From the NCBI RefSeq assembly GCF_024298765.1, contig NZ_CP101210.1: 64,000 bases of DNA; one strand, 5' to 3'. The translations under genes were made by a program, and so were the position numbers. Numbering within the stretch: position 1 is the stretch's first letter; each line of letters starts with the position of its first letter. Source of the DNA: Escherichia coli (lineage in GTDB: Bacteria > Pseudomonadota > Gammaproteobacteria > Enterobacterales > Enterobacteriaceae). Below the pieces are notes generated by a model, which was not told the origin of the DNA, did not search any database, and was given only the letters and a program-made list of their open reading frames with translations. This document shows positions 10,314 through 28,701 of the stretch, piece by piece.

Positions 10314-11270
10314 TCAATACCCCATATTTTTCTTCTTCTCTAACTCTTCTTTTGCGGTATCAGGCAGATAAAGGATGGATTTGGTCAGAGTTAGCTTTTC
10401 AGGCATGGTGCCGTCTTTTTTATATTTCTCCAGCGCATCAAAAGCGGGGCCTGCCATGTTCGGCGTCAGTTCAACGCTGGCGTTCGCTTCGCCATCAATC
10501 ATCGCTTTGTAGATGTCCGGCACGCCGTCGATAGAGCCTGTCAGGATATCTTTGCCCGGTTTCAGGCCCGCTTCTTTAATTGCCTGAATTGCACCAATCA
10601 CCATGTCATCGTTATGGGCGTAAACCATGCAGATGTTTTTGCCGTTGTTTTCCGCTTTGATAAAGCTCTCCATCACTTCTTTGCCTTTGCTGCGGGTGAA
10701 GTCACCTGACTGCGAGCGGATAATTTTGATATTTGGCGCATTCTTAATGGCTTCGGCAAAGCCTTTCTTACGGTCAATGGCGACGCTGGCCCCAACGGTG
10801 CCCTGCAGCTCCACCACGTTGCATGGTTTGCCATTCACTTCTTTTACCAGCCAGTCACCAATCAACTTGCCTTCGAGGATGTTGTCGGCGGTGACAGTGG
10901 TCATATAGAGAGATTTGTCTTTCACATCGATGGAACGGTCAAGCAAGAAGACCGGGATTTCGGCATCTTTCGCCTCTTTTAATACCGGTTCCCAACCCGT
11001 CGCCACCACCGGAGCGATAAAGATCGCATCCACCCCTTGTGCGACGAAGGAACGTACCGCTTTAATCTGGTTTTCCTGCTTTTGCTGACCATCGGCAATT
11101 TTCAGTGTGATACCGCGTTTTTCGGCTTCACTTTTCGCCACATTGGTTTCTGCGGCGCGCCAGCCGGATTCCGATCCGACCTGCGAAAATCCTACGGTTA
11201 ATGGAGCGGCCAACGCCATAGACGACATGGCTGCCGAGACTGCAGAGACTACAAGTAAGCGTTTCCACAT
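10314..11270 (-). CDS. ytfQ: Periplasmic sugar-binding protein (galactofuranose ABC transporter)
   Basis: 318 aa ORF with N-terminal signal peptide; heads the ytfQRT-yjfF cluster. Confidence 0.92.
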   Translation of the reverse strand: MWKRLLVVSAVSAAMSSMALAAPLTVGFSQVGSESGWRAAETNVAKSEAEKRGITLKIADGQQKQENQIKAVRSFVAQGVDAIFIAPVVATGWEPVLKEAKDAEIPVFLLDRSIDVKDKSLYMTTVTADNILEGKLIGDWLVKEVNGKPCNVVELQGTVGASVAIDRKKGFAEAIKNAPNIKIIRSQSGDFTRSKGKEVMESFIKAENNGKNICMVYAHNDDMVIGAIQAIKEAGLKPGKDILTGSIDGVPDIYKAMIDGEANASVELTPNMAGPAFDALEKYKKDGTMPEKLTLTKSILYLPDTAKEELEKKKNMGY

Positions 11271-11341
11271 AGGGTTGTCCTCGTCGGGGTAATTATTATT
11301 GGTGAAAAGATGTTCGCGAAAAAACTATAGACAATTCGTTA

Positions 11342-11360
11342 TGTAACGGATTGCGTTACA
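11342..11360. promoter_or_regulatory. Inverted repeat TGTAACG-gattg-CGTTACA in ytfQ upstream region, candidate operator
   Basis: 7-5-7 perfect palindrome ~70 bp upstream of the ytfQ start. Confidence 0.3.
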
Positions 11361-11510
11361 TCACACTTCAAAAAAGTAAATAAAACGTTAATCACAAGTT
11401 TGTAATCGCTTTCATCTCACTATGAAAAATGCGGCTACGGTTATGGATTTTCCTGCTCTGTATACCGTCTTAAAACTGGCGAAAAAGGAAAATGAAGACG
11501 AAAACAAGCG

Positions 11511-11579: not shown

Positions 11580-12110
11580 ATGAGCTTACTCAACGTCCCT
11601 GCGGGTAAAGATCTGCCGGAAGACATCTACGTTGTTATTGAGATCCCGGCTAACGCAGATCCAATCAAATACGAAATCGACAAAGAGAGCGGCGCACTGT
11701 TCGTTGACCGCTTCATGTCCACCGCGATGTTCTATCCGTGCAACTACGGTTACATCAACCACACTCTGTCTCTGGACGGTGACCCGGTTGACGTACTGGT
11801 CCCGACTCCGTACCCGCTGCAGCCGGGTTCTGTGATCCGCTGCCGTCCGGTTGGCGTACTGAAAATGACCGACGAAGCCGGTGAAGATGCGAAACTGATT
11901 GCTGTTCCGCACACCAAGCTGAGCAAAGAATACGATCACATTAAAGACGTTAACGATCTGCCAGAGCTGCTGAAAGCGCAAATCGCTCACTTCTTCGAGC
12001 ACTACAAAGACCTCGAAAAAGGCAAGTGGGTTAAAGTTGAAGGTTGGGAAAACGCAGAAGCCGCTAAAGCTGAAATCGTTGCTTCCTTCGAGCGCGCCAA
12101 GAATAAATAA
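11580..12110 (+). CDS. ppa: Inorganic pyrophosphatase
   Basis: 176 aa ORF recognised as E. coli Ppa ([32 protein letters not shown]...). Confidence 0.95.
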
Positions 12111-12451
12111 GTTCTTCTGGCGCAATAACCCTGAACACCGGGCTTCGGTTAGTAAGGGTTTTTTTATGCCCGCAATTTATAAACTCTCTACTCCACTATT
12201 ATTATTTTCAGCAGTTGAAAGGCTTGAACGGTAAGAACAAGCTAAACTCGACCACCATTTTGCTGTTCATAGCCACTTGCTGGAAGTTAGCCGGCCTCAC
12301 TCATACTCACCGTTCAAAGCGTGTCCCCGTTTTACCCCTGTACATTTGTTAACGCCAGCAGAGTTTTTTATGCGATTGCAGATATGGAAAGCGGCCCGGA
12401 GAGAAAAGCAAAAGATGGGAAAGTTACAAAAAAAATCGCGAGATACATCGC

Positions 12452-12478
12452 ATAAAACAACGCCACCCGAAGGTGGCG
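12452..12478 (-). terminator. Rho-independent terminator downstream of ytfP (bidirectional in appearance)
   Basis: CGCCACC-CGAA-GGTGGCG hairpin flanked by T-rich sequence on both strands. Confidence 0.6.
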
Positions 12479-12489
12479 TGCTTTTATTA

Positions 12490-20868: not shown

Positions 20869-20896
20869 CGGCTCCTGAATCAGGAGCCGTCTTATT
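20869..20896 (+). terminator. Rho-independent terminator after ytfL
   Basis: CGGCTCCTG-AAT-CAGGAGCCG hairpin followed by T-rich tract. Confidence 0.6.
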
Positions 20897-28678: not shown

Positions 28679-28701
28679 AAGATGCATTTAAAATGCATCT
28701 T
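28679..28701 (+). promoter_or_regulatory. NsrR operator upstream of ytfE
   Basis: Perfect 11-1-11 palindrome AAGATGCATTT-A-AAATGCATCTT, 27 nt upstream of the ytfE ATG. Confidence 0.7.

Follow-up and report, generated by a model that had tools for sequence, protein, structure and literature searches.

Organization of the ytfQ/ppa control region

The analyzed window, a 64-kb stretch of E. coli DNA, contains the divergently transcribed genes ytfQ and ppa, which are separated by an intergenic region of 309 bp (Table 1), and is 100% identical to several complete E. coli genomes. Within the intergenic region lies the sequence TGTAACGGATTGCGTTACA, a perfect inverted repeat with 7-nt arms and a 5-nt spacer (TGTAACG-GATTG-CGTTACA). 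Direct reading of the window, in which this sequence has a single match, confirmed both the palindrome reported in the initial annotation and its assignment to the divergent control region. The palindrome can be extended by one A/T pair to an 8-5-8 repeat (11341-11361), and a search for inverted repeats at this point recovered arms of 11 nt at 91%. The equivalent segment of E. coli K-12 occupies positions 4449871-4449891.

The perfect 7-5-7 palindrome is statistically unremarkable by itself, because the window contains 10 such repeats compared with 3.9 +/- 2.7 in dinucleotide shuffles; for 8-5-8 repeats the corresponding numbers are 7 and 2.1. When arms of 8 bp and spacers of 0-10 bp are considered, the window as a whole contains three times as many perfect inverted repeats as shuffled sequences (42 vs. 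14 +/- 5.7), with clusters near 20870, 28680, 44745, and 45080. Moreover, the perfect 7-5-7 form is only one allele among E. coli: a 59-bp core is identical to the window in 52% of 5,424 complete E. coli genomes, and K-12 MG1655 carries TGTAAC-GCAATCT-GTTACA, in which the innermost pair is broken.

The description of the control region given in the initial annotation was incomplete, since two canonical GalR/GalS operators and a pair of AraC-type boxes had been overlooked. The region on the other side of ppa also differs from K-12, where chpB adjoins this gene (4448692-4449121). Only about 380 bp (12111-12489) separate ppa in the window from the next ORF, presumably ytfP, and on account of this short distance the window strain appears to be devoid of the chpSB toxin-antitoxin pair.

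Table 1. Genes and predicted regulatory elements of the ytfQ/ppa region (window coordinates; centres of sites are given relative to the predicted ytfQ transcription start)
Feature	Position	Strand	Basis
ytfQ	10314-11270	-	window gene
GalR/GalS operator GTGGAAACGCTTACTT, OI-like, centre +57.5, within ytfQ codons 1-6	11253..11268	-	published site, 15.4-16.2 bits
Predicted ytfQ transcription start, G, 47-nt leader	11317	-	predicted, 7 nt past the -10 element
-10 element TCTATAGT (hexamer TATAGT, 11329..11324; C at -13)	11324..11331	-	CTATAG invariant in 24/24 orthologues
Dyad ATGTAAC-N7-GTTACAT, 21 bp, putative operator	11341..11361, centre 11351	.	invariant arms in 22/24 Enterobacteriaceae
Palindrome, 7-5-7	11342..11360	.	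direct read
Promoter-proximal CRP-like site aagTGTGAtgtaacGCAATccg	11347..11368	-	invariant TGTGA, cya effect
Conserved T-tract CTTTTTT	11370..11376	-	aCTTTt in alignment
Distal CRP-like site TGTGATTAACGTTTTA, centre -71.5	11378..11399	-	simple consensus count, equal to the proximal site
GalR/GalS operator ATGAAAGCGATTACAA, OE-like, centre -90.5	11400..11415	-	16.6 bits; absent from the tables of Qian et al.
AraC-type direct repeat GAGC-N7-TCCATA / TAGC-N7-TTCATA, 21-bp register	11421..11458	-	direct read
ppa	11580-12110	+	window gene

Conservation of the dyad in Enterobacteriaceae

A total of 80 ytfQ loci were collected, and the upstream regions of 24 Enterobacteriaceae were aligned. The aligned taxa belong to at least nine genera, including Escherichia, Citrobacter, Enterobacter, Pseudocitrobacter, Phytobacter, Superficieibacter, Mangrovibacter, and Pluralibacter, as well as unnamed lineages. 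No indel occurs in any of the 24 sequences over the 84 columns surrounding the site, for which the consensus is attAAc.ttt.atT.aCTTTt..GAagTGTGATGTAACgCA.Tc.GTTACAT..c..aTTGtCTATAGTTt. Of the 24 orthologues, 22 carry the arms ATGTAAC and GTTACAT without any change, and the distances from the arms to the flanking TGTGA and CTATAG elements are fixed. At the same time, all four bases were observed at four positions of the spacer and at five positions past the right arm. As the neighbouring positions are saturated with changes while the arms remain constant, both arms are under selection.

The innermost G.C pair of the window palindrome varies among species and is mismatched (U.U or G.A) in four taxa; since it is also broken in K-12, the conserved geometry of the element is 7-7-7, ATGTAAC-N7-GTTACAT. 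The 7-5-7 geometry proposed previously thus holds for the window allele, but not for the conserved form, in which the spacer reads GCAwTyy and overlaps the right half of a CRP-like site. The two orthologues with altered arms are Pluralibacter gergoviae, in which both arms are gone, and E. cloacae DSM 26481, which has a single change in the right arm. Since P. gergoviae lost both arms together and retained TGTGA, GCA, and CTATAG, the two arms behave as a single unit.

It is the conservation, rather than the palindromy, that constitutes the evidence of function. A chance palindrome without function would agree with the abundance of perfect 7-5-7 repeats in the window; this explanation is hardly credible given that the arms are constant over at least nine genera amid saturated positions, which already contradicts chance. 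Among the compared ytfQ promoters the dyad is confined to Enterobacteriaceae. No second copy was found in the window or in 94 ytfQ and other loci compared, and a paralogous 59-mer was absent from every E. coli genome searched; the dyad is single-copy, and therefore no regulon could be defined in its support.

We also considered whether the palindrome might act in RNA, as a hairpin in a longer ytfQ leader transcribed from an upstream, e.g., AraC-dependent, promoter. The AraC-type boxes are indeed situated upstream, and the C-to-T change of K-12 retains a G.U pair in the ytfQ-sense RNA. An RNA role is nonetheless very improbable, because the arms, being invariant, show no covariation and the inner pair is mismatched in four taxa. 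In addition, the predicted structure is weak (-9.2 kcal/mol, z = -1.56), with 17 of 200 shuffled sequences folding equally well, no Rfam family scored above its threshold (OrzO-P reached 22 bits where 60 are required), and no terminator-like site was found. The conserved block furthermore continues into TGTGA and the -10 element, a logic that belongs to DNA. A promoter and terminator scan of the ytfQ strand revealed nothing relevant in the way of a terminator or an alternative promoter.

The ytfQ promoter and its CRP-like sites

The sole plausible candidate for the -10 element of ytfQ is TCTATAGT, an assignment made from the sequence and from its position at a constant distance from TGTGA in 24 of 24 orthologues. 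A cytosine at position -13, as in this element, favours sigmaS. A -35 partner was not detected by a simple sigma-70 scan; the GTTACA hexamer of the right dyad arm was rejected in this role, being separated from TATAGT by only 12 bp. In the supplement of Romero et al., an entry for ytfQ was not found. An unusual leader was observed in Enterobacteriaceae bacterium RIT691 (L013), in which an insertion of approximately 110 bp between the -10 element and the ytfQ ribosome-binding site leaves the promoter block intact but extends the distance from CTATAG to the start codon to 170 nt, compared with 56-61 nt elsewhere.

Data on the dependence of ytfQ on sigmaS differ between strains. In stationary-phase EDL933 the RpoS-dependence ratio of ytfQ is 879, and the same list includes the classical CRP-regulated genes acs and aceBA, whereas the chemostat table for K-12 gives no effect of RpoS on ytfQ. 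Because of this co-listing and of the absent effect in K-12 chemostats, direct control by sigmaS is not established, and the use of sigmaS at the ytfQ promoter is to be regarded as possible.

The core of the promoter-proximal CRP-like site (TGTGA-TGTAAC-GCAAT, 16 bp, 11365..11350) is centred at 11357.5, i.e., at -40.5 from the predicted start. Its left half is perfect and is invariant in all 24 Enterobacteriaceae, whereas the right half matches the consensus at two of five positions. In K-12 chemostats, a cya mutation decreased the expression of ytfQ 3.6-fold and that of ytfR 5.2-fold; the supplement of the CRP ChIP-exo study contains no ytfQ entry. We infer from the conserved half-site and the cya effect that CRP occupies the -40.5 site. 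The T-tract immediately upstream may serve as a contact for alpha-CTD, in the manner of an UP element. The distal CRP-like site lies 31 bp from the proximal one and is restricted to Escherichia, Citrobacter, and the E. cloacae group; a TTAAC core at this position is conserved more widely than the site.

The dyad does not stand alone but is closely interwoven with the proximal CRP-like site. The palindrome itself (TGTAA-N9-TTACA) does not have the spacing of a CRP site; instead, the left arm of the dyad forms the 6-bp spacer of the CRP-like site. Being centred at -34, the dyad spans approximately -44 to -24 of the predicted promoter, with the right arm at -30 to -24, and overlies both the -35 region and the core of the CRP-like site, which extends from -48 to -33.

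Outside Enterobacteriaceae, an element of the form TGTGA-N6-(T/G)CAwT was found without the dyad in the ytfQ promoters of Serratia, Yersinia, Pectobacterium, Brenneria, Rahnella, Aeromonas, and Vibrio, where it is located directly downstream of AraC-type boxes. Likewise, Erwiniaceae retain a TGTGA-N6-TCAtt element and have no dyad. Since other families carry the CRP-like element without the dyad, the CRP-like site is ancestral, with the dyad as an overlay specific to Enterobacteriaceae; on the same grounds, the dyad would be dispensable for the basal and CRP-dependent functions of the promoter.

These comparisons bear on the simplest explanation of the conserved block, namely that it consists of a CRP site and a core promoter only and that constraints from CRP-induced bending or from contacts with sigma or alpha happen to make the arms symmetrical. 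The invariant TGTGA, orthologous across the order, the cAMP dependence of ytfQ, and the position at -40.5, typical of class II CRP promoters, are all in line with it, and similarly weak right halves occur in the proximal elements of deoP2 and tsx-p2, which we take to be CRP sites. CRP, however, does not read its 6-bp spacer, which at ytfQ contains the invariant TGTAAC, and the right arm falls outside the 22-bp CRP site. In other families, the CRP-like element has very different spacers and no right arm, and P. gergoviae has dropped both arms while preserving TGTGA and the -10 element. We therefore consider an explanation by CRP and the core promoter alone unlikely.

GalR/GalS operators and AraC-type boxes

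The similarity of the arms to GalR/GalS half-sites was assessed with a weight matrix built from the 18-19 ChIP-supported operators of Qian et al., among which ATGAAAGCGATTACAA does not occur. In its best 14-mer register the palindrome scored 5.2 bits, against a range of 11.7-19.8 bits for the training sites, and 121 sites of the window reach at least 4 bits. The mismatch with the 16-bp GalR/GalS site noted in the initial annotation is thereby borne out. The first six bases of the arm, TGTAAC, correspond to the half-site consensus and score 7.6 bits, but the seventh base is G instead of the expected C and reduces the score to 3.3 bits. A conserved central CpG was not found in any register of the dyad. 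As an operator of GalR/GalS (TGnAAnCGnTTnCA, 16 bp) the dyad was accordingly rejected: its score is at background level, the CpG is missing, and the distance between the half-sites exceeds that of an operator by 5 bp.

Two canonical operators flank the dyad and form a pair resembling OE and OI, 147 bp apart. Each orthologue from Enterobacteriaceae and Erwiniaceae has exactly two operators, one centred at +9.5 from the start codon and the other 132-249 bp upstream. The downstream operator is kept in all Enterobacteriaceae and Erwiniaceae compared, and owing to this conservation the first six codons of ytfQ (MWKRLL) appear to be doubly used, for coding and as an operator. The spacings between the two operators are 132-133, 146-148, or 231-249 bp, in which strict helical phasing is not apparent; phased looping by GalR was discarded on this basis. 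In the ChIP-chip data of Qian et al., ppa/ytfQ is a GalR target with a ratio of 22, and the site is given as GTGGAAACGCTTACT. The peak probe is located at 4449971, and the resolution is too coarse to separate the dyad from the canonical operators 56 and 90 bp away. Since Erwiniaceae possess both operators and no dyad, the dyad seems to represent a layer of control apart from GalR/GalS.

The dyad and the GalR/GalS operators share the half-sites TGTAAC/GTTACA, at a promoter verified by ChIP as a GalR target, and differ in the half-site spacing (5 bp larger in the dyad), the central CpG, the matrix score, and the phyletic spread. The arrangement is also different from that of the mglB and galS promoters, in which an ordinary operator is placed directly upstream of a full CRP site. 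The K-12 mglB leader (L083, approximately 130-270) contains five GTAAC/GTTAC pentamers within about 150 bp, including TATGTAACAG, a 10-mer common to this leader and the right arm of K-12 ytfQ.

A flexible protein of the LacI family, either GalR/GalS themselves or one similar to CytR, might still recognize TGTAAC and GTTACA as split half-sites with 5 bp of additional spacing. CytR tolerates variable distances between its half-sites and acts together with CRP, and its region at deoP2 contains TGTAA besides TGCAA. The agreement of six bases in each arm with the GalR/GalS half-site and the high ChIP signal at ytfQ are compatible with such binding. On the other hand, the full-site score does not exceed background, the centre of the dyad varies among species and is free of a central CpG, and the additional 5 bp would place the half-sites on opposite sides of the helix. 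The ChIP signal is already explained by the two canonical operators, which are both present in Erwiniaceae, where the dyad is absent. Binding to split half-sites is, in our assessment, quite improbable.

The AraC-type direct repeat was recognized by the AraC box consensus TAGC-N7-TCCATA. Its TCCATA box is retained in Escherichia, Citrobacter, the E. cloacae group, and Pluralibacter. The repeat points toward ytfQ and ends approximately 104 bp upstream of the predicted start, which is far for simple repression. Regulation of ytfQ by AraC has been reported in the literature.

Comparison with other regulatory systems

The operators of several further regulators were compared with the dyad. NsrR recognizes an 11-1-11 operator (AAGATGCATTT-N-AAATGCATCTT) of the Rrf2 family, whose halves each contain an ATGyA core, and in this it resembles the dyad; its half-sites are about 4 bp closer than those of the dyad, and the flanking bases differ. 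With up to three mismatches allowed, the only match to this operator in the window is at 28679-28701 rather than at the palindrome, and the dyad was rejected as an NsrR operator of this form. The match is a perfect 23-bp operator (AAGATGCATTTAAAATGCATCTT), with zero expected by chance, and presumably represents the ytfE promoter site; nsrR itself is located just past the end of the window, beside rnr.

A functional parallel would be provided by CytR and cAMP-CRP at deoP2, tsx-p2, cdd, and udp. As proposed for ytfQ, a repressor site is combined there with a proximal CRP site near -40.5, whose TGTGA is strong and whose right half is weak, and CRP-dependent activation is blocked. The systems differ in that CytR, which recognizes TGCAA, takes a place between or next to two CRP dimers, whereas at ytfQ the sequence is TGTAA and the dyad shares its DNA with the CRP site. 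Evidence tying CytR to ytfQ was not found. The region upstream of K-12 tsx (L090) contains a LacI-type 16-mer, ACGCAATCGATTACGT, upstream of the tsx-p2 CRP sites; this 16-mer and the ytfQ dyad, in its left arm and spacer, have the 9-mer AACGCAATC in common.

The TyrR box has the consensus TGTAAA-N6-TTTACA, which the arms of the dyad match at five of six positions each. As the spacer of the dyad is N7, only one arm could be in the TyrR register at once. TyrR, UvrY/GacA, OmpR, RstA, CpxR, PurR, HexR, Fis, IHF, and Tus/Ter were all set aside upon reading the site by eye against their consensuses, the spacing or orientation being wrong.

A description of the dyad was not found in the literature searched, nor was a peak at the dyad in the published binding studies searched. 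In the ChIP-exo data of Gao et al. (2021), one uncharacterized TF (Dataset S4, fourth list) has a peak at 4448117-4448149 (U00096.2) with ytfQ as the nearest gene; the signal-to-noise ratio is 18.7 and RNAP is bound as well, but the peak lies off the promoter, inside the coding region (approximately +132 to +164). In the NrdR paper, ytfQ is mentioned solely for a decrease in its protein.

An identical dyad associated with Rrf2-family regulators

Scanning of metagenome contigs for ATGTAAC-N7-GTTACAT produced at least 120 matches. Six of the matches listed belong to ytfQ promoters, and the majority of the others look like chance occurrences. A distinct set is formed by eight contigs with GC contents of 0.34-0.70 (L101, L120, L135, L143, L157, L170, L211, and L213), in which the arm includes the ATG of a gene of about 150 codons, the start codon being 9 bp from the centre of the dyad. 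All eight encoded proteins belong to the Rrf2 family (PF02082, Pfam scores of 61-112 bits against a cutoff of 30). The same arrangement is apparent from the reading frame that follows the arm in L185 and L189, which are cut off by contig ends. The proteins form a subfamily with an invariant TNPVV(V/I)RR helix and one conserved cysteine, and the consensus of the linked sites is ATGTAAC-(A/T-rich N7)-GTTACAT-G. Genes for an OYE-type flavin oxidoreductase and an MFS transporter are among the neighbours; in L120, a second copy of the dyad lies 37 bp upstream of the MFS gene. This recurrent arrangement shows the dyad to be a genuine autoregulatory operator of a single-Cys Rrf2 subfamily in other bacteria. 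We know of no published description of an operator for this subfamily.

The arms and spacing of the ytfQ dyad are identical to those of the 10 Rrf2-linked sites, and the interpretation of the former as a protein-binding site gains support from this link of the same dyad to a dimeric winged-helix regulator. The geometry in both cases would suit a winged-helix dimer, and by analogy both would be sites of the repressor type placed over a promoter or gene start. The two differ in context, since the metagenome operators include the ATG of their own gene and have A/T-rich spacers, while the ytfQ dyad has the spacer described above and no Rrf2 gene nearby. A gene of the subfamily was not detected beside ytfQ or elsewhere in the 64-kb window (tblastn E > 0.29). 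To our knowledge, NsrR and IscR are the only Rrf2 proteins of K-12; their recognition helices read SRNHMVKIINQL and SLSYLEQLFSRL, respectively, compared with TNPVVvRR, and they are 20-24% identical to the subfamily.

Related sequences were observed in other metagenome contigs. Five contigs of high GC content contain a near-perfect 27-bp palindrome, AACATGTAACGTATTACGTTACATGTT, with the geometry TGTAACG-N5-CGTTACA (L096, position 6533; L163, 7432; L165, 11034; L166, 5509; L202, 1962). The neighbouring genes are diverse, with glycosyltransferases, a methyltransferase, and an oxidoreductase among their products, and no regulator gene is adjacent; these sites may be further targets of a similar regulator. 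A contig with 44% GC (L127, 11757-11815) has two identical dyads, ATGTAACatacggtGTTACAT, 38 bp apart within a direct repeat.

A putative repressor operator over the CRP site of ytfQ

Taken together, the conservation of the dyad, its position, and the use of the same dyad by Rrf2 regulators elsewhere strongly suggest an operator for a dimeric regulator, as the initial annotation had supposed. The most likely reading, which we hold to be moderately probable, is that a dimeric repressor has its operator in the dyad and, once bound, keeps CRP and RNA polymerase away from the ytfQ promoter. Both the binding of a protein at the dyad and repression as its effect are what we infer from the arrangement of sites. 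By analogy with the Rrf2-linked sites, the protein is probably of the winged-helix type; the earlier remark that the cognate regulator is not obvious still applies. Among the observations that point against this reading are the damaged arms tolerated in E. cloacae DSM 26481 and P. gergoviae, the weak right half of the CRP-like site, the single copy of the dyad, the absence of a peak at the dyad in the binding studies searched, and the differing recognition helices of NsrR and IscR.

According to the proposed mechanism, the ytfQ promoter would have a -10 element of the sigmaS/sigma70 type (TCTATAGT), no recognizable -35 element, and a class-II-like CRP site near -40.5. A dimeric repressor bound to the dyad would shut out both cAMP-CRP and RNA polymerase, since the dyad overlaps the CRP core and the -35 region, and the operon for the galactofuranose/arabinofuranose transporter would be switched off. 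GalR/GalS would act separately from the dyad via their two flanking operators, and AraC, also separately, via the upstream direct repeat.

A more far-reaching possibility, which we advance tentatively and regard as doubtful, is an unrecognized regulator-operator pair in Enterobacteriaceae, including K-12, with a specificity similar to that of the Rrf2 subfamily and with a dimer over the ytfQ CRP site that gates furanose uptake. The regulator could be an uncharacterized winged-helix factor, or a known protein such as NsrR, IscR, GalR, or GalS (the last two on split half-sites) acting outside its described specificity.

The dyad would be a new, orphan example of a familiar element, a repressor operator over an activator site, in a well-studied organism. 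The metagenome sites, for their part, provide a clean operator consensus for a widespread and apparently uncharacterized Rrf2 subfamily, which could help in the annotation of its regulons. For E. coli, the 21-bp dyad of K-12 is a precise bait for fishing out the binding protein. The operon ytfQRT-yjfF encodes the sole furanose-specific sugar transporter known in E. coli, and a conserved orphan operator over its CRP/-35 region would imply one extra signal. If the proposed pair exists, it would be a fourth input, besides CRP, GalR/GalS, and AraC, at one small promoter of the best-studied bacterium.
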